Sequence record: PX645697.1
Length of the DNA: 64,000 nucleotides
Reading direction: 5' to 3' (one strand)
From: a phage
Part shown: positions 7,211-63,259 of the stretch, in pieces
Position numbering within the stretch: position 1 is the first letter of the stretch
Layout: every line of letters begins with the position of its first letter
The notes under the pieces: model-generated
What the model was told of the DNA's origin: nothing
What the model saw: only the letters and a program-made list of their open reading frames with translations
The model's database searches: none
Program-made: the position numbers and the translations under genes

Positions 7211-7251
7211 TCGACAAATTAATTATTTAATAGTATAGGAGCTAACATAAC

Positions 7252-8840: not shown

Positions 8841-8844
8841 AACT

Positions 8845-8875
8845 AAAGCTGCCTTCGGGTGGCTTTTCTTGTTTT
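8845..8875 (+). terminator. intrinsic terminator
   Basis: AGCTGCC-TTCG-GGTGGCT hairpin followed by TTTCTTGTTTT. Confidence 0.55.
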
Positions 8876-8897
8876 AATACCTATACAAGCTAGTGTG

Positions 8898-8906
8898 TAA
8901 TGTATA
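8898..8906 (+). promoter_or_regulatory. TAATGTATA promoter-like motif (candidate phage sigma factor promoter)
   Basis: exact 9-mer 34 nt upstream of ATG 8940, directly after a terminator. Confidence 0.5.
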
Positions 8907-8939
8907 TTCTTTGTCTACATATAACAAGGAGGACAACCT

Positions 8940-9692
8940 ATGGCAATGCCAGATGTTCAATACCCCATCAATACCTATGGGTGGCTAAAGAAGGCCGTGG
9001 CCCTCTGGGCAGATAGGGACGATGACGAATTTGTTAATCAAATTCCAAACTTTATTAACTTTGCAGAGAAAGAGATTTATCGTAACTTACGTATTCCTCC
9101 TCTGGAAAAAGAAGTGTATTTAGATATCAAAGATGGAGTAGCTTACATTCCTCCTGATTACTTAGAAGCTCAATGGATGATGAGAGCCAAAGATGGTACA
9201 ATCTTCCAAGTAACCTCTCCTGAGGAGATTAGCTATCGTAGACAGCACGGAACAATTAATCCATCTCATTGGAATAATCAACCTGTTAACTTTGCTCGTT
9301 TCGGGAGTCGTTTCATTTTCTATCCTAATATTGAAGCAGATACTCCGTACTATCCTGATGATGGAAGTCCTTTGATTCCCGCAGAAAACTCAGTAGTTCT
9401 TAGCTATTATGCAGACCCACCGGAATTCCACGAAGATACAGATACCAGTGCTATTCTTACTATCGCACCAGAACTTCTTCTGTATTTCACTCTACGTCAT
9501 GCTTGCTTGTTTGTTCAAGATGATAATGGTGTTCAGAAATGGTCAGCATTAGGAAAAGCTATCCTTGATGAAATGGTAGAACAGAATAAGAAACAAGAGT
9601 ACTCAGGTTCGCCTATCGCAATTCCGAATAACATGACTCGACTTCAGAGCAGCTTGCCTGATATTTATGGTATTCGTACTTCTCGTGTATAA
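8940..9692 (+). CDS. hypothetical virion protein (possible head-tail adaptor or tail tubular protein)
   Basis: 250-aa ORF with SD AAGGAGG; position between capsid and tail fiber genes. Confidence 0.5.
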   Translation: MAMPDVQYPINTYGWLKKAVALWADRDDDEFVNQIPNFINFAEKEIYRNLRIPPLEKEVYLDIKDGVAYIPPDYLEAQWMMRAKDGTIFQVTSPEEISYRRQHGTINPSHWNNQPVNFARFGSRFIFYPNIEADTPYYPDDGSPLIPAENSVVLSYYADPPEFHEDTDTSAILTIAPELLLYFTLRHACLFVQDDNGVQKWSALGKAILDEMVEQNKKQEYSGSPIAIPNNMTRLQSSLPDIYGIRTSRV

Positions 9693-9701
9693 GGAGATAA
9701 T

Positions 9702-12482: not shown

Positions 12483-12489
12483 AACAATA

Positions 12490-12510
12490 ATGCTCCCTTC
12501 GGGGAGCTTT
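12490..12510 (+). terminator. weak terminator/attenuator hairpin
   Basis: GCTCCC-TTCG-GGGAGC followed by a short TTT and the next SD. Confidence 0.35.
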
Positions 12511-12522
12511 AAGGAGATTTAA

Positions 12523-14673
12523 ATGTCTAGAGAATTAATGCCCAAATCTGGCATAATGATGCCTCATGTGGTTGTAACCAGAGATGCGGCTGTTGTTGGT
12601 GTTTCTACTGTAGATGGACAAGCAGGGGCTATTGACCTTACTGGAAAGTATTTACAGAAAACCGATGCGGCTGCTACATACCAAACTAAAGCAGAAGGTG
12701 CATCTAAAGATTTTGTGCTGGATTCAATTCAACCTATTATGTCCGGTGCTTTGTTCCGAGAAGACCCTTGGGTTGTTAATGACACACCTTTCCGTTCTAC
12801 TGGAGCTAATGGTGTAGAGTCTGTGGATATGATGAAGGTTACTCCCGATAACTCAATCAAGATTGGTAGCTATGCCTCTTCTGTTCAAGGTGTAGAGATT
12901 CACTCTGCTGGTCGGCTTCAAGTAGTAGACCAGAATGATTCTGGAGTAGAAACTAAGTATCCTGTTTATTCTAAACGTTATCGTCCTGAGATTGAGGATT
13001 TGCCTTTTGCTGCAATTGGTTCTTATGTCAAAGATTCCAAGGGTCGCACTATTGGTGTAAATCGTACAGGGATTAACTCTGATATCAAACAGCTCACACA
13101 GAAAGTAACCTTTACTCAACCAGTAACTGTTCCTGATGCAGTTGGTGATTATGATGCAGTTACTTTGAGACAACTTCGTAATAGTGGTGGTGGCTCTGGT
13201 GGTCCTACGATGAGTGGCATCTCCAACTTTGGTATTGGTGATTTCCACTTACGTGATAGTCGAGCTTTTATCCCAGCTTTTGAAGTAGTGTCTGATGGTC
13301 AGCTTTTGAATCGTGCTGATTATCCAGATTTGTGGGCTTATGCTCAACTGCTATCTCCAATCGAGGATTCTCTTTGGTTATCTAACATCTACCAGAGGGG
13401 TAAATACTCTACGGGTAACGGTACAACGACTTTCCGTGTTCCTGACCGAAATGGTATTCAAGAAGGGTCTCTGAAAGCTCTGTATGGTCGTGGTGATGGT
13501 GGAGCTTCGGCTGCTAATGGTCAAATATTTGATTCTGCTGCTCCTAACATTTATGGAGATATTGGTGGTGTTGTTGCTTATGGCCAGACTGGAGCTATTC
13601 TACGAGGTCAAGAGGAACAACCTCTCGCCCCTCAACCTTCAACTGGAAATGGTGTCTTGAGAGTTAGTTTAGACGCCTCAAAAGCAAGTCCTGTATATGG
13701 TCGTTCCACTGATGAAATCCTAACCCGTAACTTTGTAGGTGTGTGGACTATTCGTGCTCATGGAGGTTTTACTGCGGCTAACACTTCTTGGTCTGTTATC
13801 AACAGGGACAGCGCAGCTCCGGCTTTAAACACTTCTGTAGTTGGTGGTAAGGTGGAATCTAAATACACTAACCCAACCTCTTCCCAATATGCTCGTATGT
13901 ATGTTTCCTCTTCTTGGGGGAGTGTTTGTTCTGCCGTGATTGAAGCACAAGGTGCAAGTACTCACGCTTATAAGTTTTATGAGGATGGCACTGTTGATTT
14001 TAGGCAGTCTGGTAAGACAAACCCATTCCGCATGTACACACCAACTGGAACTTGGAATGGACTGACGGATGCGGGGACAAACAATTTAACCACCAATGGA
14101 ATGGACAGGGTGGCGATTTCTAGTGGCTCTGACACAGTGGTGCATGGGTACTCTATTGGAGGATCTAAACCTAATGGTTATCCAACCAAGGTTGGGTATC
14201 ATATGTATTTGCCGGGAAATGACGCCTTCGGTATCGCCTGTACAACTATTGGAGGAGACAACGGAAGGTTCTGTCGATATTTTTACGACATAGGCGGGCA
14301 GATATATGGCTCAACTGATTATGGAAACTTTAGCTATACAAAGAGTGGTGTCTCGGATGAAAACCTGAAACATAACATTGTTGATATTGATGCAGAAAGA
14401 GCTATTGAAGTAATAAAAGGACTGAAGTTCAAATCCTTTGTTTACAACGATGATGAGAAGAATCGATCTCGTCGTGGTATCATTGCACAGCAGGCAGAGA
14501 CGGTAGAACCTCTGTATGTCAAGACTCGTAAGTATCCCGGAACTGGAAACGGCGATTCTATGAAAGAGCAGAAAGAGTTAGACACAACTCCTATGCTACT
14601 TGACACTATGCAGGTTGTTCAGAATTTGCTGAAGCGTGTAGAAGAGTTAGAAGCTCAACTGGCTGCTAAGTAA
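12523..14673 (+). CDS. tail fiber/tailspike with C-terminal intramolecular chaperone (peptidase S74-like) domain
   Basis: 716 aa; C-terminus SDENLKHNIVDIDAERAIEVIKGLKFKSFVY...RRGIIAQQ matches the auto-cleaving chaperone motif of endosialidase-type fibers. Confidence 0.75.
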   Translation: MSRELMPKSGIMMPHVVVTRDAAVVGVSTVDGQAGAIDLTGKYLQKTDAAATYQTKAEGASKDFVLDSIQPIMSGALFREDPWVVNDTPFRSTGANGVESVDMMKVTPDNSIKIGSYASSVQGVEIHSAGRLQVVDQNDSGVETKYPVYSKRYRPEIEDLPFAAIGSYVKDSKGRTIGVNRTGINSDIKQLTQKVTFTQPVTVPDAVGDYDAVTLRQLRNSGGGSGGPTMSGISNFGIGDFHLRDSRAFIPAFEVVSDGQLLNRADYPDLWAYAQLLSPIEDSLWLSNIYQRGKYSTGNGTTTFRVPDRNGIQEGSLKALYGRGDGGASAANGQIFDSAAPNIYGDIGGVVAYGQTGAILRGQEEQPLAPQPSTGNGVLRVSLDASKASPVYGRSTDEILTRNFVGVWTIRAHGGFTAANTSWSVINRDSAAPALNTSVVGGKVESKYTNPTSSQYARMYVSSSWGSVCSAVIEAQGASTHAYKFYEDGTVDFRQSGKTNPFRMYTPTGTWNGLTDAGTNNLTTNGMDRVAISSGSDTVVHGYSIGGSKPNGYPTKVGYHMYLPGNDAFGIACTTIGGDNGRFCRYFYDIGGQIYGSTDYGNFSYTKSGVSDENLKHNIVDIDAERAIEVIKGLKFKSFVYNDDEKNRSRRGIIAQQAETVEPLYVKTRKYPGTGNGDSMKEQKELDTTPMLLDTMQVVQNLLKRVEELEAQLAAK

Positions 14674-32380: not shown

Positions 32381-32907
32381 TTATTCTCCTAACAGCTTAC
32401 GAATTTCATTGCGGAAGTTATCATACTCTTCAGGGTATTCAAACCCACATTCGAGAAGAGCGTAGTGAACAACCTTCAACAAATCCTGAGCCTTATTCTT
32501 ATCCTTGTGTCGATAAGCATATTTGATCATGTTGGTTTGTTGGAAGTTCAACTGAGGGTTTGCATGATAAAATTCAACAGGCTGAATGATTTTAGATTCA
32601 GGGTTATAGTGTGCACCACCAACCATAGTATCTAAAGCTGGACTTCTTTTGCTGGTTTGTTCAGTTGTAGACTTAAAGCTGACTACAGGGACAGAGGAAT
32701 AAATTGGATACTCTTCACCTACTGGCGGCTTTACCATCAACTTTTTCATTGCATACTGAATTTCTGTATCAGCAGAACACGAAGAGATTTCTTCAATAGA
32801 TTTACGATAACTGTCAAGAACTGCACGTAGCATAGAGATTGTCCCATTCTTCTCTTTTGATCTCTCTGCTAATACAATAACTTCTGCTTTTTTGGATTCA
32901 AACTCTG

Positions 32908-32917
<10 letters not shown>
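32381..32917 (-). CDS. hypothetical protein
   Basis: 178-aa ORF tightly tiled with neighbours. Confidence 0.5.
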
Positions 32918-34403
<1,486 letters not shown>

Positions 34404-34404
<1 letters not shown>

Positions 34405-34667
34405 TATTCTATTCCACGCTCTTTAAGAGCTTCTAACAATCCGTTGTGATTAGCAGCACATTCTGTGTACTGGTCCTGATACCACTCCAACGTAGTGGCT
34501 AGTGCTTTTCCTTGAGCACTCTCTAAAAGAGGTAGGTCAACCCTACATTCAGCTTTTAGGTTTGTTGGTAAGGGCATTGATTGCCTGCTGTTGTCGCTCG
34601 TTGAACAAGCTGACATACTCATCACTAGCGCAGACATTATAAAAAACTGGTTTAGTTTTCTCATAAT
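34404..34667 (-). CDS. candidate o-spanin (outer-membrane lipoprotein, Rz1-like), overlapping i-spanin in another frame
   Basis: internal start MRKLNQFFIMSALVMSMSAC with lipobox-like SAC; mature part contains prolines and Cys. Confidence 0.4.
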
Positions 34668-34923
34668 GCATCTCTTTATAAATGGTTTCCGTGTTCTTCT
34701 TCCAGTTAGATAAACCGGTAAGAACCCTCTGAGCAACTTCATCAGCTGCTCTATTTCTTTCAATCTCTAACTCTTGTTGATGTTTCTCTTTGTCCAGATT
34801 ACTGCTGTCTGTTTGATATTCGTTAAACTTCATACCACCAAAGAATACAAGAGCTGAGAAAACGATAAACCCTAAGTTATCACTTAATGTGTTTTGCATG
34901 TTGTCTCCAACGAAAAAAGCCAC
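34549..34923 (-). CDS. candidate i-spanin (Rz-like)
   Basis: 124 aa; N-terminal TM LGFIVFSALVFFGG then charged helical region; C-terminal SDEYVSLFNERQQQ resembles lambda Rz C-terminus. Confidence 0.45.
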   Translation of the reverse strand: MAFFVGDNMQNTLSDNLGFIVFSALVFFGGMKFNEYQTDSSNLDKEKHQQELEIERNRAADEVAQRVLTGLSNWKKNTETIYKEMHYEKTKPVFYNVCASDEYVSLFNERQQQAINALTNKPKS

Positions 34924-34956
34924 CCAGAGGTGGCTAAGCTATAACAAGGAGAGTTA

Positions 34957-35703
34957 TTAGAATGGGCTATCGTTGTCGTCTTCGTAAGTAGAAGCAGGCT
35001 CTTTATCAATCGTAGGGATTGAAGGAGTAGCTTCTTTCTGCTCTGTTTCAGAAGCACGAGTAATTTCACGACCAGCCAGAGGCATGTTCTTAGCGTCATT
35101 AGCTTGAGTAAGCAGGTTGCGCTGGAACGGGAACATCAGTTGATAGGATGCTACGTTCTCATCGGTTTCAGCATACGGTTCGAAGAATACCAGAGGACTA
35201 CGAGCTTCACCAACTGCTGCACGATATTTAGTTGGGATTGGAGAAATGGTCTTGATGGAGTTTTTAACTTCACCAGCTTTGTTAGTGTAAGAGTTAACCA
35301 GAATGTTAACAGGCTGGCCTAACAGAACATCCTTGAACCAAGACAGATCACCTTTCAGCGCTTGAATACTTGGGTCAATCATCTTGCAAAGATCAAGAAT
35401 ACCAGAGTTCTTAGCTCGTGGGTTTACATCATAGCTCTTGAACTGGCAAGCCGGACGTGGTTCTAATGCCTTACCATCGGAATCTTTACCAGTAGCATCA
35501 ACACCAATCAGCTCGAAAGCTAAATCCATACGGAAAGCCGGACTCTTAGGAGTTACTGCTTTGGTCTTCGGGTCAATCCAAGGATCACGATTGTGAACAC
35601 CCAAACCTACTACACGAACAATACGTGCTTCGTATTCACCATCAGGGATTACATCGTAGTTGGATTTACGGGAAGCAGTTGCGATAGTTGGAATCATAGA
35701 CAT
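34957..35703 (-). CDS. single-stranded DNA-binding protein (T7 gp2.5-like) with acidic C-terminal tail ending in Phe
   Basis: 248 aa; C-terminus ...TYEDDNDSPF; optimised codon usage; sits beside putative origin region. Confidence 0.55.
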   Translation of the reverse strand: MSMIPTIATASRKSNYDVIPDGEYEARIVRVVGLGVHNRDPWIDPKTKAVTPKSPAFRMDLAFELIGVDATGKDSDGKALEPRPACQFKSYDVNPRAKNSGILDLCKMIDPSIQALKGDLSWFKDVLLGQPVNILVNSYTNKAGEVKNSIKTISPIPTKYRAAVGEARSPLVFFEPYAETDENVASYQLMFPFQRNLLTQANDAKNMPLAGREITRASETEQKEATPSIPTIDKEPASTYEDDNDSPF

Positions 35704-35762
35704 ATTGTAATTTCCTTATTTAATTTGAAAGATTGTTGCTCTCTTTGAGCGGTTATGTATAG

Positions 35763-35771
35763 TATACATTA
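35763..35771 (-). promoter_or_regulatory. TAATGTATA promoter-like motif upstream of SSB-like gene
   Basis: exact 9-mer on - strand about 59 nt upstream of ATG 35703. Confidence 0.5.
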
Positions 35772-35834
35772 CGCTTATACCGATAAGAGTACTATATAAT
35801 ATAAGTATCTTTGGTAGTAGATATAACACATTAG

Positions 35835-35843
35835 TAATGTATA
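35835..35843 (+). promoter_or_regulatory. TAATGTATA motif on + strand, divergent from the SSB promoter
   Basis: exact 9-mer; would drive rightward transcription antisense to - strand genes. Confidence 0.35.
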
Positions 35844-35939
35844 TATTGTATAGCTGATAAAGTTATTGCAGGCTTGTATATTGGGCAATTCACAGAATCC
35901 CTTGCAAGTACCGAAGGGCAGGAGCCACCTGCGAGATAA

Positions 35940-36005
35940 AAATAGAGAATTAAGGAATCCTTGATTTAGGTTGTAGGGACTCCTAGGGACTTTGATTCTC
36001 TATTT
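35940..36005. repeat. 11-bp perfect inverted repeat AAATAGAGAAT / ATTCTCTATTT with 44-nt spacer
   Basis: arms at 35940-35950 and 35995-36005; spacer holds sub-palindrome AAGGAATCCTT and direct repeat AGGGACT..AGGGACT; inside a 416-nt ORF-free AT-rich region. Confidence 0.6.
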
Positions 36006-36119
36006 AAAAGAATATTAATTACTTATTACCTAAATAATTAACTAACTTACTTAAACCAAATTCAAGAATAATAGATAAAAAGATTATTCCTAAGAAAGCT
36101 AAAAAGTAAATAATATAAG

Positions 36120-36284
36120 TTACCATTCAAGTAAACCTTTAAAGTTAGTTTGTTCTACTATCCTCTGATAACGAAGATTAGAATCAGCTTGTTTCTTTAA
36201 CATCTCATTATATTGATCTCTGATAGAGTCTTTATGTACTACAGGTTCTTTAAATAATGAGATCTTGTTCTTTTCTTCTTTCAT
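36120..36284 (-). CDS. small hypothetical protein (start refined)
   Basis: ORF overlapping the 3' end of the phosphoesterase gene in another frame. Confidence 0.3.
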   Translation of the reverse strand: MKEEKNKISLFKEPVVHKDSIRDQYNEMLKKQADSNLRYQRIVEQTNFKGLLEW

Positions 36285-36753
36285 CAAAAACCTTCCTAAT
36301 CTCTTGCAGAGAAACAGCTTTATAATCAATTTGCTCCATTGATGTACAGAAATATCTCCAATCATCAATTACATGATTATGTGTATGAGCATAAATATTA
36401 AACCTTCCTCTCATCTCATCAGTGTGAATAGGAATATGAGTTACCCAAAACTCTTTGTACTTATAATCACCAGAGATTCTACGGAAGACTTTCATCATAT
36501 CAGGGAGAAGTTCTAACCTGTCATGGTTTCCTAAAACTAGATGCTTCTCTCCTTTTACTTCAGCGATGATATCAAGGGCATACTTTTCAAACACCCAGTC
36601 ACCAGTAAAGAAGATTTTATCTCGCTTAGTTACATGATCAAATGCAGCTAGAATTGCTTTGTCATGTTCTTCGATGGTTTTAAATTGCTTACGAAAACTA
36701 CAGATGTTGCGATGACCTAAGTGACCATCCCCTGCAAAATAAACTTCAGCCAT
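36250..36753 (-). CDS. metallophosphoesterase (calcineurin-like phosphatase)
   Basis: 167 aa; GDGHLGH ... FTGDW ... GNHD ... HTH motif order. Confidence 0.7.
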   Translation of the reverse strand: MAEVYFAGDGHLGHRNICSFRKQFKTIEEHDKAILAAFDHVTKRDKIFFTGDWVFEKYALDIIAEVKGEKHLVLGNHDRLELLPDMMKVFRRISGDYKYKEFWVTHIPIHTDEMRGRFNIYAHTHNHVIDDWRYFCTSMEQIDYKAVSLQEIRKVFDERRKEQDLII

Positions 36754-44533: not shown

Positions 44534-45190
44534 TTAACTCTCCAAAGTTTTCTTCAGAGCTGCCCACGAGATTGGGTAGATCTTAGCCATCTCTTCGTCT
44601 ACGGATTTAGCAAACACTCGAACTTCATATTGAGCGTGAGATGAGAGTCGCTGACGACACAGCTCAAACCAGCCATACAAAGAACCAGTCCACACCCACT
44701 CAGTGATCATCCCCTGAGGAAGAACAAATCGAGCTTGCTCTGGTGCAATAAATTCAATCAACTTGTCATATGCTGCTAGAGAATCTTCATATGCATCGTT
44801 AATCAGCATTAATGCTTCATCTCGCTCTCCGTCGATGAGTTGAATCCCTGAACCTGCATGGAGGTCCGCAGGTCTCGCAAAAATCTCTTTAGGGATGAAG
44901 ACTTCAACTGCTCCATCTTTATACCGCCGGGACATTTCGTTCCACGAGAATCCAACCTGATGCTTGCCCAACTGTCTCGCAATTGCGATAGGTGCTTTGC
45001 ATCGGAAACTGACTTGTGGGTGTCGGAATGGAGTAACATGCTTCTCTCTTGCGAGGAAATTGATGAGACGTTCATCACGTTCATTTAAATCACCTTCACG
45101 GGTTACACCAAAGGAAACTCGAGCTGCGTTTACTACAGTTTTATCCGAGCCTAAAAACTCTACCAGTTCTGCTTTAAGCTGATCATTCAT
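44534..45190 (-). CDS. ThyX-like protein (flavin-dependent thymidylate synthase family) with divergent signature
   Basis: AARVSFG N-terminal motif and KHQVGFSWNEMSRRY in place of the canonical RHR-x7-S motif; start refined to ATG 45190 with GGAGAG SD. Confidence 0.55.
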   Translation of the reverse strand: MNDQLKAELVEFLGSDKTVVNAARVSFGVTREGDLNERDERLINFLAREKHVTPFRHPQVSFRCKAPIAIARQLGKHQVGFSWNEMSRRYKDGAVEVFIPKEIFARPADLHAGSGIQLIDGERDEALMLINDAYEDSLAAYDKLIEFIAPEQARFVLPQGMITEWVWTGSLYGWFELCRQRLSSHAQYEVRVFAKSVDEEMAKIYPISWAALKKTLES

Positions 45191-45635
45191 TACTTTTTCT
45201 CTCCATCCATGAAGCAAGTTTTCTAACTTCCTCTATCGTTATATCACTTTTTAACCTATTTACTCTTCTTGACAAAAAGGTCACATTCCCTTGAACGTAC
45301 CCTTTGTCTGGAATAAATCTGTCAAGCTCAGCTAAGTCATCAGAACCTTTTTCACCATCTATCTTTATAGGCGTATCTAATACCGGACAGAATCCAGTCC
45401 AAATAGACTCTAGATACTCAGGAGTTAAATCAAAAGGTACGTTATCCCTTTTTGCTTTTATTTTAGTTCTGACATTCTTTAATTTAAAAGGTTGTGTCCT
45501 TTTATATTTTAGATATCTAGCTCTTTGACTTTCGTTGGCGCAAGAATAACAATAAGGCCGTAACCTACCAGACCTATCATTACGCACAGGAAATTGATCT
45601 ATGTCCAAATCCTTTTCACAGGAATTACAGATCAT
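45183..45635 (-). CDS. zinc-finger / degenerate HNH-like nuclease-fold protein
   Basis: 150 aa; N-terminal CNSCEK...CYSCAN; C-terminal DRFIPDKGYVQGNVTFLSRRVNRLK resembles HNH with His replaced. Confidence 0.4.
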   Translation of the reverse strand: MICNSCEKDLDIDQFPVRNDRSGRLRPYCYSCANESQRARYLKYKRTQPFKLKNVRTKIKAKRDNVPFDLTPEYLESIWTGFCPVLDTPIKIDGEKGSDDLAELDRFIPDKGYVQGNVTFLSRRVNRLKSDITIEEVRKLASWMERKSNE

Positions 45636-45700
45636 CGATCGCTTCCCATAGCTTCGATTAATGTTGCTTGTAATTGTTCATTCATCCGTGAATTTCCCTA

Positions 45701-45901
45701 TTAATATTCTTTTACACAATAAACCACTAAGGTTCCTTGATCTGTTAATATTGACTTATGTAAGCTGACATTACTATAAAACTTTGGAGCTATCTTAAGG
45801 GCTTTCTTAAAACGACGAGCTTCTTTACGAGTAGCAAAGTGCTCTGTTACAGGAACTTTGTCGTTGTGTAGATAGTAAACTACTGTCCAATATTTTTTCA
45901 T
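45701..45901 (-). CDS. small protein, member of a 5-copy paralogous family (TRKEARR.KK motif)
   Basis: MKKYWTVVYY...ATRKEARRFKK...; family-wide N-terminal MKK.W, central [TS]R.EAR, C-terminal aromatic end. Confidence 0.5.
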   Translation of the reverse strand: MKKYWTVVYYLHNDKVPVTEHFATRKEARRFKKALKIAPKFYSNVSLHKSILTDQGTLVVYCVKEY

Positions 45902-46176
45902 AATTTAATACCCAAAGCAGTTACTAAGAAAGCTTTCAGGTTTGCTTCGGTCTGCATACCAGATAAGCTATAATGTGCATCGCTGTTACGATTAGGCACA
46001 ACGAAAGCAGGGATACTTCGTACACCATACTTAACAGCTTGTTCACGACCATCACCTTCAAGGATGTTAATCTCTTCTACTTCTACATCAAACTCCTTAA
46101 CAACCTTCTCAAAGGTAGGAGCCATTGCTTTACATGGAGCACACTGATCACTATAAAACTTAATTACTTTACTCAT
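45898..46176 (-). CDS. thioredoxin
   Basis: MSKVIKFYSDQCAPCK with CxxC active site; AAGGAA SD; start refined from 46230. Confidence 0.7.
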   Translation of the reverse strand: MSKVIKFYSDQCAPCKAMAPTFEKVVKEFDVEVEEINILEGDGREQAVKYGVRSIPAFVVPNRNSDAHYSLSGMQTEANLKAFLVTALGIKL

Positions 46177-46366
46177 TCTATTCCTTGTTAATAAACAGGT
46201 TGATATGACGCTGGGTAGCAGGAACAACAATAAAAGATTTATACTGACCTTTTGCTAGGTCATGAGCAATCTTCTTTGTCTGACCAAGACCCATCACACA
46301 GCCACTAACGATAATGGCATGTGCTTGTAATTCTTCAGGTAGGTTTAGTTTCACTCTTTGGATTCC

Positions 46367-46552
46367 TTATAGCATACAAAGAATAATAACAAGAGGTAGT
46401 GTTATAGCAAAATGTACCAGAACAACACTACCTAGCTTGATAGCTTTAACATCCTCTTCTGCTGGGTTTTCTTTAATTGCTAAATTTCGAGCTTTATATA
46501 TAACAGTACCAACTATTAACGACCACACGGCCCACACAATCAGTGAAATCAT
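46367..46552 (-). CDS. small two-TM membrane protein
   Basis: 61 aa; MISLIVWAVWSLIVGTVIY ... VVLVHFAITLPLVIILCML. Confidence 0.45.
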   Translation of the reverse strand: MISLIVWAVWSLIVGTVIYKARNLAIKENPAEEDVKAIKLGSVVLVHFAITLPLVIILCML

Positions 46553-46561
46553 ATCAAATCC

Positions 46562-46741
46562 TTATGCAGTCAGGAGGTGAAGCAGGAATGGGATAACAAC
46601 AGCTACGATAACCATGATAGTTGATGCTGTTTGAATCTCACCTTTCTTATCAGGGGTTTCTTCAATAAGCTTACCAGAAGCCCAATAAATACCACCACCA
46701 ATAAAGATAGCCCAAATACCCCATACGATTGCTGATAACAT
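46562..46741 (-). CDS. small two-TM membrane protein, paralog of 46367..46552
   Basis: hand-translated 59 aa MLSAIVWGIWAIFIGGGIYW...TIMVIVAVVIPFLLHLLTA. Confidence 0.4.
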   Translation of the reverse strand: MLSAIVWGIWAIFIGGGIYWASGKLIEETPDKKGEIQTASTIMVIVAVVIPFLLHLLTA

Positions 46742-46802
46742 ATATCTATATCCTTATAAATAAGTTCGCCCCACCTCGGGTTAGGAGACAGGGCGGAGGT
46801 TT

Positions 46803-47366
46803 TTAGTAAGACACATCACCACTTGAGTGGGACATGTTGCTCTTGACAAAGTAGCAATACTTGCCAAGACCTTCATTAATTTCTTGAAGCATACTCTGAT
46901 CAACTGGATAAGTGACTAAATCACCATCAAACTCATCCATCTTCTCAATAATACACAACAAGGTCATGCACATATCAGAGAGCATTCCATCCATGTCTAG
47001 ATCAGCATTACCCTCTGAGAACCAAGCATGAGAGAGGTAGTTAGCTGCTGTAGCGTCCACTTTAACACAGTGGTAACGCATACGTTCAGCAATACGATCT
47101 CCTACCTGTCGTGCGTAATCTTCCAGCTCGTCAAACATACCATGAACACCCTGAAATCCTGCACCAGAGACGTTCCAGTGGTAGTTTTTAGCTTTAATAT
47201 GCAAGAGTTCCATGTTAGCTTGTAAGCAGCTTAGGATGTGTTCTAGGTTGTTTCCGCTAATCATGCCCTGCATAGTTTCAAGGCGAGAGATTGAAAGCTC
47301 AGATCGGTCTAACATGTTATATTCTGCACGACCGATTTCAGGTAAATCAAAGACATTCTTATGCAT
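46803..47366 (-). CDS. Dps/ferritin-like protein
   Basis: HIKAKNYHWNVSGAGFQGVHGMFDELEDYARQ resembles the Dps helix A/B signature; start refined to ATG 47366. Confidence 0.5.
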   Translation of the reverse strand: MHKNVFDLPEIGRAEYNMLDRSELSISRLETMQGMISGNNLEHILSCLQANMELLHIKAKNYHWNVSGAGFQGVHGMFDELEDYARQVGDRIAERMRYHCVKVDATAANYLSHAWFSEGNADLDMDGMLSDMCMTLLCIIEKMDEFDGDLVTYPVDQSMLQEINEGLGKYCYFVKSNMSHSSGDVSY

Positions 47367-47688
47367 TTGGGTTATCTCCATCAAGTTCAACTGAATTAGC
47401 AACGTTACGTTCGATGTTTGCCATCACTTGCTGCGTTATGACAATGCAGTTCTGTGGGTCAACTGATTTAGAACGCCCCATTTCAGGGTCATACACTTTA
47501 ACTCGCTTAGCAGTTGAACCTGTAACCTGAAGAACCTTCAACAGATATCCCTGATTACCAATAGACCATGCAACAACATCACGATTCTTGATGAATCGAC
47601 CAAGCATATCACGATGATAGAACTGCTGCATAACCTTTGATTTATTAATCTCTTCGGCTGGCGGAGCCACTTTACTCAAATCTAACAT
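47359..47688 (-). CDS. hypothetical protein
   Basis: 109-aa ORF with SD GGAGAGAG; promoter-like motif upstream. Confidence 0.5.
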   Translation of the reverse strand: MLDLSKVAPPAEEINKSKVMQQFYHRDMLGRFIKNRDVVAWSIGNQGYLLKVLQVTGSTAKRVKVYDPEMGRSKSVDPQNCIVITQQVMANIERNVANSVELDGDNPNA

Positions 47689-47727
47689 TTCACTCTCTCC
47701 TGTTTAACACAATATTCTTATACTGTA

Positions 47728-47736
47728 TATACATTT
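47728..47736 (-). promoter_or_regulatory. AAATGTATA promoter-like motif (one-mismatch variant of TAATGTATA)
   Basis: on - strand 40 nt upstream of ATG 47688; same spacing as exact copies. Confidence 0.4.
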
Positions 47737-47760
47737 GAGAGTGATCATATCTACTACCAA

Positions 47761-47970
47761 TCAGTAGTAAATTACTTTAGACATAAAAGAACCAGTGTTA
47801 GGGTCTTCATACCAGCGATGTATGTCAGCGCTTTTTACTATTGTGCCCAGAGTCTTCAACTGTTTCTTAGCAATACGAGCCTCTTTGCGAGTGTCAAACA
47901 ATTTGATGCTATCTTTTCTCATATGTTGCTCAAGATCCCAAACAACATGAATAGCCCACATCTTTTTCAT
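47761..47970 (-). CDS. small protein, paralogous family member
   Basis: MKKMWAIHVV...DTRKEARIAKK...VIYY. Confidence 0.5.
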   Translation of the reverse strand: MKKMWAIHVVWDLEQHMRKDSIKLFDTRKEARIAKKQLKTLGTIVKSADIHRWYEDPNTGSFMSKVIYY

Positions 47971-48185
47971 TAGTAATGTACCTTTCCGCTGATATAAATA
48001 CGGCCTGAGGTATACTCATAGCCCTTGAGAATCTTAATAGAGATAAGATATCCAGTGTGTAATTCACTGAACGATTTCTTAAGCCTACGTGCATCTTCTC
48101 GTGTTTTCTGGTAGGCCATGGTCACCCCCCCACTTGTCCACTCTGTCTTAACTAACCAAATTCTTTTCATAAGACCTGCCCTCAT
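47970..48185 (-). CDS. small protein, paralogous family member
   Basis: ...KRIWLVK...KTREDARRLKK...KVHY. Confidence 0.5.
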   Translation of the reverse strand: MRAGLMKRIWLVKTEWTSGGVTMAYQKTREDARRLKKSFSELHTGYLISIKILKGYEYTSGRIYISGKVHY

Positions 48186-48397
48186 TAGTAGTACACCTTG
48201 CTTCCAGCCATGAACGCCCCTGTCGAGCTTATCATGGCTTTGCTGATAGTAACTTTCTTACACCGTAAACATACCTTCCAGTTCTTTTTACAGATTCGAG
48301 CTTCTTGTCGAGTGTTACAAAAAATAGCCGAAGATATTTCTTGGGTGTTGTTATCATAAACACGAACACACCACTTTTTCATTGTTCCAAACTCCAC
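48185..48397 (-). CDS. small protein, paralogous family member
   Basis: ...MKKWCVRVY...NTRQEARICKK...KVYY. Confidence 0.5.
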   Translation of the reverse strand: MEFGTMKKWCVRVYDNNTQEISSAIFCNTRQEARICKKNWKVCLRCKKVTISKAMISSTGAFMAGSKVYY

Positions 48398-48588
48398 TAT
48401 CTGTCAACCGATTCAGGGACAAACTGCATTACACAGACCTGATTACGAGGAAGGTTTATTTCACAAGCGGTTTTTCTATCAGCAACCTTAGATGACGAGT
48501 TAGGGCCAATTTGAGCCATCATTAATCCCATAGCTAACATGCCGAGGATTACACCAATTGCTAGAGATGCTACAGTTTCTTGTTTCAT
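48397..48588 (-). CDS. small membrane/secreted protein
   Basis: 63 aa; hydrophobic LAIGVILGMLAMGLMMA segment. Confidence 0.45.
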   Translation of the reverse strand: MKQETVASLAIGVILGMLAMGLMMAQIGPNSSSKVADRKTACEINLPRNQVCVMQFVPESVDR

Positions 48589-48603
48589 ATCGGATACACT
48601 CTA

Positions 48604-48852
48604 TCAGTAATATATCTTTTCATTGATAACCAAAGTGTCGTAATTCTCTGTCTGAGAGTGGACCGCTTTGTGAATAGTAGCTACTACATCAACAGCATCT
48701 TTAAAGCGTCGATAATGGTTTATGGTTACTTTTTTGAGACGTCTAGCCTCCTCTCTTGAGGGAAGCTGAGTTTTTAGAACAGTGATTTTACCTGTTGAAA
48801 TCTTGGTAATCACAACTTTCAGTGCCCAACAATCCAGAGCAGCCTTTTTCAT
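48604..48852 (-). CDS. small protein, paralogous family member
   Basis: MKKAALDCWALKVV...PSREEARRLKK...KIYY. Confidence 0.5.
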   Translation of the reverse strand: MKKAALDCWALKVVITKISTGKITVLKTQLPSREEARRLKKVTINHYRRFKDAVDVVATIHKAVHSQTENYDTLVINEKIYY

Positions 48853-49055
48853 TTTACTAAACCCTTCATGTAGTCATAAAGATCATTAGAAGCTTTACCC
48901 CATTCAAGGTGCTTCTTATCCATATAACTCTTACAAGCTTCTTTACTGCTTTCATCACAAGTATCAAATCGATGACATGCTCGACCAAATGTCATAGCTT
49001 TTAATTGAACCTCGGTAGTCAAACCTTTCAGTTCTTGGAACTCTTCTTCAGTCAT
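48849..49055 (-). CDS. hypothetical small protein
   Basis: 68-aa ORF, tiled. Confidence 0.45.
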   Translation of the reverse strand: MTEEEFQELKGLTTEVQLKAMTFGRACHRFDTCDESSKEACKSYMDKKHLEWGKASNDLYDYMKGLVK

Positions 49056-49589
49056 TTACACACCTTTAGATGCAACTACACCTTCAGAGTTATTATAACG
49101 ACCCTTCACTGCATAGGAATGTTCCCCTGCATGAGAGTGCTCAAACATCACCATCTGACCAACACGCATACCAGCACGAACTCGTAAGCTATGATGCTTG
49201 GTTACGTTATGGAACTCAAATGTCAGCTTACTGCTGTTAAACCCTGCGTCTGCCCACCCGGCGTGGAGGTGGTTCAAACCACAACGAGCCATAGATGAAC
49301 GTAGGACAAACAGACTTGAGATGTTATCTGGAAGATTAAACTCCTCCATGGAGTGAGCCAAGAAGAACTGACCCGGAGTGATAACCAAACCCTCTTCAGG
49401 AATCTTTACTTCCTTCCACTGAAGATTCTCTTTCGCATCAATATCAACGATGCCATCAGCCTGTTCTTCAACAAGGATAGTATCACCAATACGGATATCC
49501 ACACTAGCAGCGTTAACATATTTATGCTCCGCATTCAGATAGCCATTGTCAATTACATCGTGCAGTTCAATACTTCCTAGTAAACTCAT
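49056..49589 (-). CDS. dCTP deaminase / dUTPase-family protein
   Basis: 177 aa; LRSSMARCGL matches the dCTP deaminase GRSSLARLGL signature. Confidence 0.65.
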   Translation of the reverse strand: MSLLGSIELHDVIDNGYLNAEHKYVNAASVDIRIGDTILVEEQADGIVDIDAKENLQWKEVKIPEEGLVITPGQFFLAHSMEEFNLPDNISSLFVLRSSMARCGLNHLHAGWADAGFNSSKLTFEFHNVTKHHSLRVRAGMRVGQMVMFEHSHAGEHSYAVKGRYNNSEGVVASKGV

Positions 49590-59907: not shown

Positions 59908-60714
59908 TTATGCTACCTGAAGGAGTTTGATCTGCTGGTCAGCTTCTTTAACGTTGTTCCCGTTAATGATTTCATGAAGCTTCTCAATCGGAAGGCGAGA
60001 GTGCAATGCCATCAGAGTGGACATATCACACTGCTGAACAACCTTGTCAACCTGATCGTAAACAAACTTACGGTTTTCACGATCGCTAATCCAGAAGTTA
60101 GACAGTGAACGGTATTCGATACCGTAGTCTTTATAGCGGATTGCAGATGCTTTGCCATAGAGTTCTTTACGGCGAGTATCTTTGTCCATAATCACTGCTG
60201 GGAGAGACAGGAAGTAGTCACACAGCACACCAAGCATCATCTGAGTTTGCAGAGTGATATCCAAAGCACCAACCACGCCAAGATGTACGTGACCACCGGC
60301 AGTACGAAGTCCCTTATTCTGAGAAGTCGGGGATGGATTCTTCTGACCAGTGAAAGCGTTGAAATCAGGAGTACACCCGAAGATGAACGCTGATTCATTG
60401 AAAGTCTTCATCTCTTCTTCAGTGAAGATGTGAGAGCTAACACCCGGAGCTGCTTCCATGTCCAGTTTGTTCAGGACATTGTTGGTGAGATCGATACCAC
60501 GTTGCATGTTATCGTTAAACGCTTCAAAACCGCTCTGTGGGTCGATATCAAACTCAGCCAGTACGTTGTCCTCTTGAAGACGTACATCCTTTGCCAGAGC
60601 GATCTTATCGTCCTTAGAACAGCCTAACAGACCAGCTACAGAGGTGATAATACCATTGCTGGTACGAACAAACATTTCAGGGTCAGAGCCGATAAGGAAT
60701 TTGCGCTTAGTCAT
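59908..60714 (-). CDS. COOH-NH2 ligase type-2-like protein
   Basis: 268 aa; N-terminal FLIGSDPEMFV and GGHVHLG motif. Confidence 0.45.
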   Translation of the reverse strand: MTKRKFLIGSDPEMFVRTSNGIITSVAGLLGCSKDDKIALAKDVRLQEDNVLAEFDIDPQSGFEAFNDNMQRGIDLTNNVLNKLDMEAAPGVSSHIFTEEEMKTFNESAFIFGCTPDFNAFTGQKNPSPTSQNKGLRTAGGHVHLGVVGALDITLQTQMMLGVLCDYFLSLPAVIMDKDTRRKELYGKASAIRYKDYGIEYRSLSNFWISDRENRKFVYDQVDKVVQQCDMSTLMALHSRLPIEKLHEIINGNNVKEADQQIKLLQVA

Positions 60715-61678
60715 TGTAATACTCCACTAGTTCAGAAAAGAGAGATGAGATTGTGTTACCAACTTCTTCAGTAGTAAGGCCAGAGCTTGGGCCAGTACGT
60801 TGAATCAGTCGGGCTGTAAAGTTTTGGACTGTAATGTTTTCCAACTTATTGTCTATTGCTTCACGTTTGTGACCATGACAGTTGGACCAGAGTCTTAACC
60901 ACTCTGACATTGTTTCATACTCGTCCGGGTCTTGATCTTTAGCATGAGCAAATCTTCGTAAGGCATCTTGGTTATGGTTACGAACATAACCATCCTTGTT
61001 GTCGCCAACACCGAAGGGGTTTTGAACCCATACTTGCTTCGTGTATTCATCAGAGTCTACAACCAAAGGAAGGAATGCTGCTGCTGACATATCGTTATTA
61101 ACAACAATAGAGGTGCTTTCGCTACTCCCATTAGCTCTTCCTCGTTGAGACCATCCACCGAAGAAGTCACGACCCAACCCAGCTAACACTAGAGCGATAC
61201 CGATGCGTTTACGCTTCAGCCACTCTTCCCTGTCTTCAATTCCTTCTGCTAGGAAATCCATTCCACGATATTGCCCTTCCAGAATACTACGAAAGAGCAT
61301 AAGTCCTGTGAAGATCTGATCTGCTGGATGCTCACGAAGGTTGACAGCAACACTATTCGCTGAAGTGATCGTAAATACGTCACGATAGCAAGACATGGAG
61401 TTCATAATATCTGCTGTTTCAACCAAATTCTTTTCAATATCAGATGTAACATGACCATGAAAAGAGTGAGTCCAGTAATTCAACATCTCCAGTTGCAAGT
61501 TGATATCACGGTTGAAGCGACGATAGCGCCCTTCTTCCGTGATAACTTCACCATTAATGTCATTTACACACTGGCCTTGCATGTAGTTGTGGATACCGAA
61601 GCACCCACGACCTAAGAACTTCTGTTCCCCTAAATCCTGTTGAAGATTAAGAGGTACGATCGTTGTGGAGATTGACAT
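60707..61678 (-). CDS. hypothetical protein (modification cluster member)
   Basis: 323-aa ORF. Confidence 0.5.
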   Translation of the reverse strand: MSISTTIVPLNLQQDLGEQKFLGRGCFGIHNYMQGQCVNDINGEVITEEGRYRRFNRDINLQLEMLNYWTHSFHGHVTSDIEKNLVETADIMNSMSCYRDVFTITSANSVAVNLREHPADQIFTGLMLFRSILEGQYRGMDFLAEGIEDREEWLKRKRIGIALVLAGLGRDFFGGWSQRGRANGSSESTSIVVNNDMSAAAFLPLVVDSDEYTKQVWVQNPFGVGDNKDGYVRNHNQDALRRFAHAKDQDPDEYETMSEWLRLWSNCHGHKREAIDNKLENITVQNFTARLIQRTGPSSGLTTEEVGNTISSLFSELVEYYND

Positions 61679-61688
61679 AACTAACCTT

Positions 61689-62885
61689 TTATTTTCCTAA
61701 AAATAATCCGCTCATAATACCATCCCACTCAGAGGATGGAATCACTGAATACACTGAACTTTGGTCCAGAGTTCCACTACTAAATCGTTGAACGATGTTA
61801 TAGATGTTGAACAGATCTTTAGTCTCAGCACGAATGCCGTAGATTAGACTATTAGCTGTTCTTTCATCTTTAGACACTCGACGGGTAAAGTTAATCAGAA
61901 GGTTGTCACATTTCAGGATTTCTGATTCACTCTCTACTAAGTCGGGGTGCATCACCGGCAAGAACATCGAGTTATTAACTCGTAATTCTGCTGTTTCATC
62001 ATTCTCATAATGAATCCACTTAAAATCTTCATCACGGAAATGACCACACCCATCTCTATATGACTGTTGACGCCAAGGCACTTGAAATGCTTCAGCATAC
62101 TTATTAGCCATGCCAACTGTAAACAGCGACGCTGGGAAGATACAAGCATCCCAATCATTACCAACCAGAGTTGCTTTCGTTTCACCTAAGAGGTTAGTGT
62201 AAGTGCTAACCATTCGTGAGTAAACGTAAGCCTGAAGAATTGTCCATCCTTCAACCAACCATTTATGGAGGAAGGTTTCAACTTGACTCTCTTCATCTTC
62301 ACAATAGAAGGTTCGATCTAACATCAAATAGAATAGACAACGATCAGCAGGAACATTTTCAGTTGCTACCCCCATAAAACCTTTATCGTGCCAGCGTAAA
62401 CAGGAGGGACGATCTTTGTCCACAAATGCTTCCATAGCTTCCAGTACAGCACGAGGTGTGGTTCGATGTTCAGGGTTTTTGTCGTTCCAACGTTCGATGT
62501 TATTCTTGGGAGGTGTGTCTTCATCTTCATACGAACACCAACTTAAAGCTTCAGCTACATGCTTTTCATCACGCCAACGTCTAAAACCTAACATCTTCAT
62601 ATGAGTTCCGGAGTTCCAGATATGCTTGATTTTACACATATCCATCTCTCGGCTTAACAGGAACTCTTCCCCATCAGCACTACGAACGTTAGCTTCTTCA
62701 TGCCACACTCGAACGTGCATATTCCATCCATGAGTTGCCTCATACATGTTAGGGTCGAAGTATTCATCTTCGTAATCATCTTCATCAACGCCACCATTAT
62801 AGTTGCGAAGCTGAAGGAACCCATAACAAGGAGGGTGGACCGTTAAAACATTACCTTCAGTATCTTCTAATGTTACTGGAAACAT
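61689..62885 (-). CDS. hypothetical protein (modification cluster member)
   Basis: 398-aa ORF. Confidence 0.5.
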   Translation of the reverse strand: MFPVTLEDTEGNVLTVHPPCYGFLQLRNYNGGVDEDDYEDEYFDPNMYEATHGWNMHVRVWHEEANVRSADGEEFLLSREMDMCKIKHIWNSGTHMKMLGFRRWRDEKHVAEALSWCSYEDEDTPPKNNIERWNDKNPEHRTTPRAVLEAMEAFVDKDRPSCLRWHDKGFMGVATENVPADRCLFYLMLDRTFYCEDEESQVETFLHKWLVEGWTILQAYVYSRMVSTYTNLLGETKATLVGNDWDACIFPASLFTVGMANKYAEAFQVPWRQQSYRDGCGHFRDEDFKWIHYENDETAELRVNNSMFLPVMHPDLVESESEILKCDNLLINFTRRVSKDERTANSLIYGIRAETKDLFNIYNIVQRFSSGTLDQSSVYSVIPSSEWDGIMSGLFLGK

Positions 62886-62896
62886 TATACCAACCT

Positions 62897-63259
62897 CTAT
62901 TGGTTTTTAATCAACTCAATTGACTTACGGATATAAAGAATATCTCGGAAGTTTCTGTAGTTGTTCATAAATTGGTGCTTCTGGAAAGTAGCTTCTTCCA
63001 GAGCTTTCTTTGCTTCTGCGTAGTTTTTACGGGCAAGATGTACAACCCGCTCTGGTAACGTATTTGCATGACGGATGACATACTTGTGAGCTTTCATGTT
63101 GCTTTGCTCACGAGCAATCTTACCTTTAGCAACTTTGATACCATTTGCAATCCAAGCAAGTTCTTGCTCAAGATCATCGTTGGACATTCCACCGAGATTT
63201 GATGCAACCTTGTTCAGAGTTTCAATATTAACGTTGCCCTTAATGGGACGTGTATTCAT
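62897..63259 (-). CDS. hypothetical protein
   Basis: 120-aa ORF. Confidence 0.5.
   Translation of the reverse strand: MNTRPIKGNVNIETLNKVASNLGGMSNDDLEQELAWIANGIKVAKGKIAREQSNMKAHKYVIRHANTLPERVVHLARKNYAEAKKALEEATFQKHQFMNNYRNFRDILYIRKSIELIKNQ

Follow-up and report, generated by a model that had tools for sequence, protein, structure and literature searches.

The question raised by the locus described here is whether a phage gene that resembles a thymidylate synthase but departs from the family signature supplies an ordinary DNA precursor or a special one. The gene lies within positions 44,534–49,589 of a 64,000-nucleotide stretch of phage DNA (sequence record PX645697.1; the whole stretch is referred to as the window) and encodes a protein related to ThyX, while a second gene in the same interval encodes a protein related to Dcd, the deoxycytidine triphosphate (dCTP) deaminase. 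An initial interpretation made from the letters (the sequence-only reading) had proposed that the altered ThyX motif may change substrate or chemistry, for instance to hydroxymethylation, and that the two genes form a dedicated pyrimidine precursor pathway, possibly feeding a cluster of ligase genes. We think it likely instead that the two products provide an ordinary route from dCTP through deoxyuridine monophosphate (dUMP) to thymidine monophosphate (dTMP), the last step being carried out by a divergent, almost virus-only ThyX lineage with a rebuilt flavin and phosphate pocket. The window (G+C content along its length about 0.37–0.46) is from a Kuravirus, that is, a phiEco32-like Escherichia coli podophage of the Gordonclarkvirinae with C3 morphotype: its bases 42–52 kb align at 80–95 % identity with the genomes of about 100 phages of Escherichia and Shigella, the identity to Kuravirus genomes being 92–95 %, and in the matching genomes the same two genes are annotated as thymidylate synthase or ThyX and as dCTP deaminase.

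Both genes are conserved and under purifying selection, and are real genes rather than chance open reading frames (ORFs). Comparison with phage WFI101126 gives thyX a ratio of non-synonymous to synonymous substitution rates (dN/dS) of 0.19, and dcd one of 0.05. The start of thyX is probably the ATG at 45190, because the homologues, which are 215–221 amino acids long and align with 93–96 % query coverage, begin at this second Met. The sequence-only reading had named alignment to the ThyX fold as a check, and all the comparisons made agree on that fold. The protein scores 148 bits against Pfam Thy1 (PF02511; cut-off 24.8; 3e-43) and 124 bits against the NCBIfam thyX equivalog TIGR02170 (cut-off 87.9), and the solved ThyX structures of Thermus thermophilus (4e-31) and Thermotoga maritima (1e-24) are matched in the PDB. 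An AlphaFold2 model (predicted local distance difference test score 88.5, predicted template modelling score 0.83) was compared with the PDB using Foldseek, and the matches listed were all ThyX, with E-values of about 1e-17 and a template modelling score of 0.75–0.80 for T. maritima ThyX. The ThyX-like methylase PolB (PDB 4p5a) is a more distant relative (64 bits, 1e-16, versus 90–111 bits for true ThyX proteins).

The active site of this protein combines retained and substituted residues, which are compared below with those of T. maritima ThyX (Tm), whose numbering is used unless stated otherwise. The N-terminal AARVSFG motif noted in the sequence-only reading is indeed present, since the protein holds VNAARVSFGV and KHQVGFSWNEMSRRY. 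In HMMER and MAFFT alignments K85-H86-Q87 of the query stands opposite R78-H79-R80, and query S96 corresponds to the catalytic-site Ser, S88. The whole Tm segment reads R78-H79-R80-IA-S83-Y-N85-E86-L-S88-G89-R90-Y91, and the query has one extra residue, F90. The description of the motif as KHQ-x7-S was thus correct as to KHQ in place of RHR but not as to spacing, which the alignment gives as x8. An extra residue is also present in some canonical RHR enzymes, such as that of Mycobacterium phage HyRo, and the x8 spacing is therefore not diagnostic. Beyond the triad, the query has R97 at position 89, E185 at position 169 and R188 at position 172, in addition to the substitutions at positions 58 and 165 listed in Table 1. 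Among the residues concerned with dUMP and catalysis it keeps H53, R74, Q75, N85, E86, S88, R90, Y91, E144, R147, R174, H178, Q180 and E182, and the alignment shows that R28, S30 and F57 are kept as well.

The substituted triad is the norm in a large branch of ThyX, here called type B, and not a quirk of one phage. The 120 closest homologues (53–90 % identity) share KHQ in 119 cases, within the pattern ARQL-x-KHQ-x-GFSWNE-x-SRRY. Further out, among the 150 nearest representatives of 50 %-identity clusters (37–55 % identity), the triad is KHQ in 60 and KHK, KHT, RHT, KHH, RHQ, KHN, RHN or RHH in 29; the remaining 61 fell outside the search pattern, and those read by eye had no RHR (KHV, KHM, RSV and KSQ were seen). 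RHR was found in one of the 150, from a Petrotogaceae bacterium, whose RHR-x8-SRRY arrangement represents an intermediate form, and SRRY is almost universal in the set. The motif observation is accordingly more general than the sequence-only reading had it: the protein belongs to a known family, as a variant that departs from the classical signature.

We compared this branch with canonical enzymes in two samples drawn from scans of IMG/VR, each of which returned at least 600 rows. The canonical sample (73 sequences) was chosen on TPFE[MH] and the type-B sample (80 sequences) on WNExSRRY or API..ARQ; each was thus picked on one column, and only the remaining columns count as evidence. Those columns separate the two sets completely. 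All canonical sequences have R78, H79 and R80, with A, G or T at 89, H or K at 165 and mostly H at 169. All type-B sequences have K78 and H79, with Q, K, T or S but never Arg at 80, G, A, S or R but never Glu at 58, Arg at 89, and Y, M or A at 165; 71 of the 80 have Arg at 169. In both sets R28, S30, H53, F57, R74, Q75, N85, E86, S88, R90, Y91, E144, R147, R174, Q180 and E182 are invariant or nearly so, and H178 is variable. In a larger set of 330 type-B sequences Arg is found at position 58 in 147 and at position 169 in 157, in no case at both, and at neither in 26, so that 92 % of members have one or the other. The kuravirus clade has Arg at 58 (R65 of the query) and at 172, and most other type-B proteins have it at 169. 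Such mutual exclusion suggests that a single pocket can receive its Arg from either of two positions. With the gain of Arg89 the surroundings of the pocket roughly retain their number of basic residues, and the phosphate clamp appears to have been relocated without loss of its function, with R65 and R97 as candidate compensating residues in the kuravirus protein. A simpler scheme, in which Arg80 moved to position 58, is only partly right, as most type-B proteins have G, A or S at 58 and Arg at 169. Also set aside was a 'KQGS' loop as a hallmark of the branch, since canonical enzymes of phages and of Thermus have it too, and in the query it is degenerate (HAGS).

Published descriptions of ThyX indicate what the changed residues do. 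In the ThyX proteins of Mycobacterium tuberculosis (Mtb) and Helicobacter pylori (Hp) the RHR triad lies on the phosphate of the adenosine monophosphate part of flavin adenine dinucleotide (FAD), on its ribityl chain and on the flavin mononucleotide phosphate, the first Arg also touching the isoalloxazine ring and dUMP. Arg190 (Mtb) or Arg165 (Hp), equivalent to Tm R165, makes a further contact to the flavin phosphate and ribityl (PMC6514825). The direct hydrogen-bond partners of dUMP named in the ThyX literature are Arg78, Arg80, Ser88 and Arg90, and in the enzyme of chlorella virus PBCV-1 residue 89 is able to occupy the dUMP phosphate pocket. The alignments place the type-B changes mainly on residues that, in these enzymes, clamp phosphates (flavin phosphate and ribityl, dUMP phosphate), and by the same comparison leave untouched those that would read the uracil and transfer the methylene group. 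Glu58 of TPFEH, which we take to be a flavin contact, is also replaced. Since the changes fall on phosphate and ribityl contacts and not on the base or the one-carbon chemistry, nothing points specifically to hydroxymethylation. KHQ most likely marks the type-B branch and not a new chemistry, and the proposal that the altered motif changes the reaction is left without specific support, the catalytic and base-reading residues being kept and KHQ being the norm in a viral branch.

A rewired phosphate pocket could alter the substrate and not the chemistry, the enzyme then acting on uridine monophosphate (as PolB does), on deoxycytidine monophosphate (dCMP) or on a di- or triphosphate. The clustering of changes on contacts to the 5'-phosphate of dUMP and to the flavin phosphates would fit this, as would the detectable relationship to PolB (1e-16). 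We nevertheless regard it as very unlikely: R147, R74, Q75 and S88, which make other phosphate and sugar contacts, are invariant, the bit scores place the query nearer to true ThyX than to PolB, and the neighbouring genes of type-B proteins supply deoxynucleotides (Dcd, dUTPase, ribonucleotide reductase and dCMP deaminase). As for dCMP in particular, the uracil-specific R90 and R174 are kept. Equally, the loss of the canonical flavin contacts R80, R165 and E58 might be taken to mean that the protein is a decaying or non-catalytic pseudo-enzyme that does not bind flavin. This is scarcely credible given a dN/dS of 0.19, a motif that is invariant over 53–90 % identity, the maintenance of basic residues by relocation, and the occurrence of the type on at least 600 viral contigs and in hundreds of 50 %-identity clusters.

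Type-B ThyX comes almost exclusively from viral contigs, and the branch is apparently virus-only. The closest relatives in GenBank phages are from kuraviruses, Salmonella 7-11-like phages, Chaseviridae, Vibrio phages and Rheinheimera phages, and KHK, KYV and KYA versions occur in the N4-like Pectobacterium phage CB1, Bacillus phage Riggi and Streptomyces phage Enygma, respectively. In the ThyX-like proteins of Riggi (241–951 of the locus) and Enygma (280–999) even the His of the triad is lost, the dUMP residues are kept, and an insertion of 6–8 residues precedes NE-x-SRRY. A search of 185,579 species, with one bacterial or archaeal genome each and patterns narrow for the KHQ clade, gave only three loci, all on contigs of 0.5–3.4 kb; with these patterns no cellular organism depending on a KHQ-type ThyX came to light, the three short-contig matches probably being phage contamination. 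They include a 526-bp scaffold of Herbiconiux daphne and a 1983-bp contig of an Aurantimicrobium metagenome-assembled genome, the KHQ-type ThyX of which is 68 % and 46 % identical to the query, respectively; contamination by phage is the most likely origin of both. RHT-type relatives were traced to a giant-virus-like contig (marked by DUF5760), not to a cell. The RHT-type ThyX concerned (6001–6957 of the locus, on a 559-kb contig of GCA_013572995.1) has a low-complexity C-terminal extension and giant-virus-like neighbours (DUF5760, VWA and glycosyltransferase 25 genes), and the assembly is highly fragmented and eukaryotic-looking, so that a giant virus may be integrated in that genome or contaminate it.

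As to genomic context, the type-B gene lies in T7-like replication and deoxynucleotide-supply modules, and it is the sole thymidylate synthase gene within the flanks examined. In the Chaseviridae phage vB_EcoM_4HA13 the KHQ-ThyX gene is directly upstream of the primase-helicase and DNA polymerase genes, and the module also encodes, about 9 kb further downstream, a deoxynucleoside monophosphate kinase and a dUTPase. The commonest neighbours on 22 environmental contigs are family-A DNA polymerase (11), T7-type primase-helicase (8–11), ribonucleotide reductase (4) and dCMP deaminase (2), and no base-modification enzyme is among the 25 commonest neighbour families of these contigs. In 925 kb surrounding 80 type-B loci, tblastn revealed no ThyA and no second ThyX; the same sequence contained five dUTPases, two dCMP deaminases and one Dcd.

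The assignment of the second gene to the dCTP deaminase family is borne out. Its product scores 118.5 bits against Pfam DCD (PF22769; cut-off 27; 4e-34) and 107.8 bits against the NCBIfam dCTP_deam equivalog TIGR02274 (cut-off 92.8). The catalytic residues of E. coli Dcd are Ser111, Arg115 and Glu138, and these align with S98, R102 and E125 of the query, which also keeps R110, A124, D128, the C-terminal Tyr and the lid motif. The best solved relatives are the enzymes of Bacillus halodurans (4xjc; 6e-15, 59 bits) and M. tuberculosis (2qxx; 7e-14, 56 bits); E. coli Dcd (6e-8, 36 bits) and the Methanocaldococcus jannaschii enzyme (34 bits) score lower. An AGW segment is present in the query as in bifunctional enzymes, versus AHR in E. 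coli, and the protein is possibly of the bifunctional, dUMP-forming type. A search for homologues of Dut, ThyA and dCMP deaminase found none, either in the window or across the rest of the early region of phage WFI101126, and dUMP would be made either by the Dcd-like enzyme itself or by host Dut.

We propose that thyX and dcd constitute the phage's own thymidylate supply line. Both are encoded on the minus strand, where homology to phiEco32 assigns the surrounding genes to the middle (replication) class, and they would be expressed together with the genes for replication. Deamination of dCTP to a deoxyuridine nucleotide would fall to the Dcd-family enzyme; deoxyuridine triphosphate (dUTP) would be converted to dUMP by host Dut, or dUMP would be formed directly if the enzyme is bifunctional like its closest solved relatives; and the ThyX-like enzyme would methylate dUMP to dTMP with reduced flavin and methylene-tetrahydrofolate. 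Such a route might serve to shift the deoxynucleotide pool of a host with about 51 % GC towards the needs of a genome with about 42 % GC. In the ThyX-like enzyme the clamp on the flavin and dUMP phosphates would have been moved, Arg78 being changed to Lys, Arg80, Glu58 and the basic residue at 165 being lost, and Arg being gained at 89 and at either 58 or 169. What the data show directly is membership of the family and fold, the coordinated substitutions, the retention of dUMP and catalytic residues, the genomic contexts and purifying selection; that the relocated arginines restore binding of cofactor and substrate, that the product is dTMP and whether Dcd is mono- or bifunctional are matters we infer. 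The dedicated pathway of the sequence-only reading is thus retained in part: the two proteins plausibly form one route from dCTP through a deoxyuridine nucleotide to a C5-methylated product, but probably not to a special one.

Several observations weigh against an ordinary supply line. The RHR-x7-S family signature is absent from the query, which has KHQ-x8-S and keeps only the His and the Ser, and further cofactor contacts are missing as well, R65 and Y181 replacing Glu58 and R165; with the triad and three further cofactor contacts altered, cofactor use or kinetics could differ. The ThyX enzymes that have been assayed, including the viral one of PBCV-1, are described as having the conserved Arg-78/Arg-80 motif, and our reading of the literature turned up no type-B ThyX that had been assayed biochemically or genetically. 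The alternation of R58 and R169 may in part reflect two clades and not many independent events. Finally, the BASEL-2 study described the Gordonclarkvirinae as remarkably resistant to restriction–modification (RM), with no known modification pathway or inhibitor, and its authors speculated that deoxyuridine-containing DNA is made through Dcd and the adjacent nucleotidyltransferase. Targets remain in the window, namely 37 EcoRV, 8 EcoRI, 8 EcoKI and 97 AGACC sites, and site avoidance alone therefore cannot explain the resistance.

Avoidance is nevertheless strong. Observed and expected numbers in the window are 4 and about 96 for CCWGG, 0 and 20 for PstI, 0 and 11 for SphI, 2 and 23 for SacI, 1 and 12 for BamHI, 134 and 310 for GATC, and 8 and 24 for EcoRI; over-represented are EcoRV (37 versus 21), SspI (48 versus 22) and CAGCAG (84 versus 49). 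The termini of phiEco32 DNA were mapped by restriction profiling and subcloning, and this, together with the site avoidance, argues for ordinary, cleavable virion DNA. We found no nucleoside analysis of kuravirus DNA in the literature. Among the approximately 35 ORFs scanned, no hydroxymethyl-nucleotide kinase, dTTPase or dCTPase, glycosyltransferase, or enzyme of the 5-HMUDK or aGPT type turned up.

These data bear on the possibility that the rewired pocket of type-B ThyX changes the product released, or the flavin or reductant used, and that with Dcd it supplies a non-canonical pyrimidine which, once in the DNA, accounts for the RM resistance of the Gordonclarkvirinae. In its most explicit form the enzyme, fed by Dcd, would release a C5-modified pyrimidine such as 5-hydroxymethyl-dUMP by hydration of the exocyclic methylene intermediate through which ThyX chemistry runs and which nucleophiles could in principle trap. 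The stable conservation of so many altered cofactor contacts, the resistance of phages whose genomes retain EcoRV, EcoRI and EcoKI sites, and the lack of a type-B assay report in the literature would all accommodate this explanation, but in either form we consider it unlikely. It is phosphate-binding residues that are altered, and those for catalysis and for reading the base are unchanged; the KHQ type recurs in many unrelated phages, in plain modules for replication where the commonest neighbour families include no modification enzyme and the flanks no second thymidylate synthase; no modification-partner family is seen among the ORFs scanned; and restriction-site avoidance of this strength is typical of unmodified DNA, that of phiEco32 having been both restriction-mapped and subcloned.

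In another reading, which takes up a suggestion of the BASEL authors, deoxyuridine would replace thymidine in the DNA of kuraviruses, with Dcd producing an excess of dUTP and the ThyX-like protein having no thymidylate synthase activity. This draws on the position of a bona fide dcd next to the replication genes, the non-canonical ThyX signature, the unexplained RM resistance and our failure to find a phage dUTPase in the sequence searched. We judge it highly improbable. A constrained gene of the thymidylate synthase family whose dUMP and catalytic residues are intact runs directly counter to what known deoxyuridine-DNA phages carry, and no inhibitor of Dut or Ung was identified, although such inhibitors would be unrecognizable by sequence here. 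Routine sequencing has yielded about 100 kuravirus genomes, although the archaeal-type proofreading polymerases of many library preparations copy deoxyuridine-containing DNA poorly. The reported cloning and restriction mapping of phiEco32 DNA speak against it too.

There remains the proposal that the pyrimidine pathway possibly feeds the ligase cluster. The amidoligase cluster of the window is syntenic in 45-kb Pseudomonas phages of the genus Bruynoghevirus (6554–14192 of the Bruynoghevirus locus), and in kuraviruses and Bruynoghevirus alike it lies directly beside the primase-helicase and split DNA polymerase genes. Homologues of its COOH-NH2 ligase are found in 305 phage records, 120 of them from Pseudomonas phages. 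Bruynoghevirus Ab22, with an intact cluster, has no ThyX, Dcd or nucleotidyltransferase; conversely, the cluster is not present in the 24.7 kb around the Chaseviridae KHQ-ThyX, nor in the environmental type-B contigs sampled. The suggestion that a pyrimidine pathway feeds the cluster is thereby contradicted and coupling of the two was rejected: a cluster that is intact in Pseudomonas phages without ThyX and Dcd is not fed by them. Co-occurrence of the cluster with thyX and dcd within the C3-morphotype lineage is vertical inheritance and no evidence of coupling.

Table 1. Coordinates in the window of the genes, motifs and substituted residues discussed (Tm, T. maritima ThyX; Hp, H. pylori; Mtb, M. 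tuberculosis)
Feature	Position	Strand	Basis or remark
thyX-like gene, 218 amino acids	44534..45190	-	mechanical ORF extends to TTG at 45217
N-terminal AARVSFG motif, residues 31-37	45107..45127	-	Tm R28/S30 = R33/S35
R65 at Tm Glu58 position (TPFEH to TPFRH)	45023..45025	-	alignment
Altered signature K85-H86-Q87-VGF-S91-W-N93-E94-M-S96-R97-R98-Y99	44921..44965	-	alignment to Tm ThyX
Y181 at Tm R165 position (= Hp R165/Mtb R190)	44675..44677	-	alignment
dcd-like gene, 177 amino acids	49056..49589	-	Pfam DCD and TIGR02274
HNH/endonuclease-VII-type homing endonuclease	45183..45635	-	phrog_3322 1.5e-28, phrog_1035 1.5e-20
Thioredoxin gene between thyX and dcd	45898..46230	-	Pfam Thioredoxin 1.4e-13
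Dps/ferritin-like 'DNA-binding protein' between thyX and dcd	46803-47402	-	
Five paralogous small proteins, 66-82 amino acids, between thyX and dcd	45701-45901, 47761-47970, 47970-48185, 48185-48397, 48604-48852	-	
Nucleotidyltransferase adjoining dcd	49599-51002	-	class-II CCA-adding/poly(A)-polymerase head motif GGAIRD...DIDIF; weak Pfam PolyA_pol
Stand-alone NAD-dependent DNA ligase N-terminal Ia (NAD+-binding) domain, 107 amino acids	43465-43788	-	Pfam Nlig-Ia 3e-35
Small-enzyme run upstream of replication genes	32381-36753	-	DUF3310 protein, YspA/SLOG-family, macro domain protein, calcineurin-like phosphoesterase
Phage sigma factor within small-enzyme run	33297-33944	-	
Amidoligase cluster	53508-63259	-	GGACT, ATP-grasp-like ORF, GATase, Amidoligase_2, COOH-NH2 ligase, unassigned ORFs

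Other genes of the region are listed in Table 1. The homing endonuclease ORF is just upstream of thyX, overlaps its start by 8 nt and has no counterpart at the corresponding place in phage WFI101126; it has the look of a mobile element inserted beside a nucleotide-metabolism gene, outside the pyrimidine pathway, and in some related genomes it is apparently labelled 'integrase'. The thioredoxin and the Dps/ferritin-like protein encoded between thyX and dcd might be tied to redox supply for ribonucleotide reductase or ThyX, or to iron handling. The five small paralogues share a C-terminal K..W...TR.EAR..KK...Y, two of them match phrog_4939 (function unknown), and their copy number differs between the window and WFI101126. 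The long C-terminal half of the nucleotidyltransferase matches no Pfam family, and the protein is conserved in the Gordonclarkvirinae (phrog_12715). The 107-residue Nlig-Ia protein has no catalytic domains, though related genomes label it 'NAD-dependent DNA ligase'.

The gene thyX is among the commonest metabolic genes of phages and its product is named thymidylate synthase automatically. A large share of viral ThyX proteins, including that of every kuravirus, is without the family-defining motif and has its phosphate-clamping arginines moved. If these are ordinary synthases, they represent a natural experiment in rebuilding the ThyX cofactor site that is relevant to the design of ThyX inhibitors. 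Otherwise, many viral proteins are wrongly annotated, and the restriction resistance of the Gordonclarkvirinae, which are used in phage therapy, might trace to type-B ThyX. For the window itself, the two genes would be mostly an ordinary dTMP supply line, unconnected to the amidoligase cluster.

The nearest known systems are the canonical ThyX enzymes (T. maritima TM0449, T. thermophilus Thy1, those of M. tuberculosis and H. pylori, and PBCV-1 A674R), which the query resembles in fold, in overall sequence (30–34 % identity) and in the dUMP and catalytic residues, and from which it differs in having KHQ-x8-S in place of RHR-x7-S, Arg in place of Glu58 and of Gly or Ala89, and Tyr in place of Arg, His or Lys165. 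The same coordinated substitutions are found in other type-B phages and contigs (vB_EcoM_4HA13, Salmonella 7-11-like phages, Vibrio phage Ceto, CB1, Riggi, Enygma and giant-virus-like contigs), which share with the query the absence of Arg80 and Glu58, SRRY, a non-basic residue 165 and a position in the replication module, although their triad varies (KHQ, KHK, KHT, RHT, and KYV or KYA without His79). The Dcd-like protein has its family, catalytic Ser, Arg and Glu, and lid motif in common with E. coli Dcd and with the bifunctional enzymes of M. tuberculosis, B. halodurans and M. jannaschii, and is shorter than these (177 amino acids). Phages that modify their pyrimidines by means of the T4 gp42 dCMP hydroxymethylase, SPO1-type dUMP hydroxymethylase or thymidine hypermodification likewise change C5 with a folate one-carbon unit before replication, but they do so with enzymes of the ThyA fold and with dedicated kinases, deoxynucleoside triphosphatases or transferases, whereas the query has the ThyX fold, and neither ThyA nor such partners were found in the sequence searched. 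Deoxyuridine-DNA phages of the PBS1/phiR1-37 type, in turn, have no thymidylate synthase and have inhibitors of host Dut and Ung, whereas the phage of the window has a constrained gene of the thymidylate synthase family.

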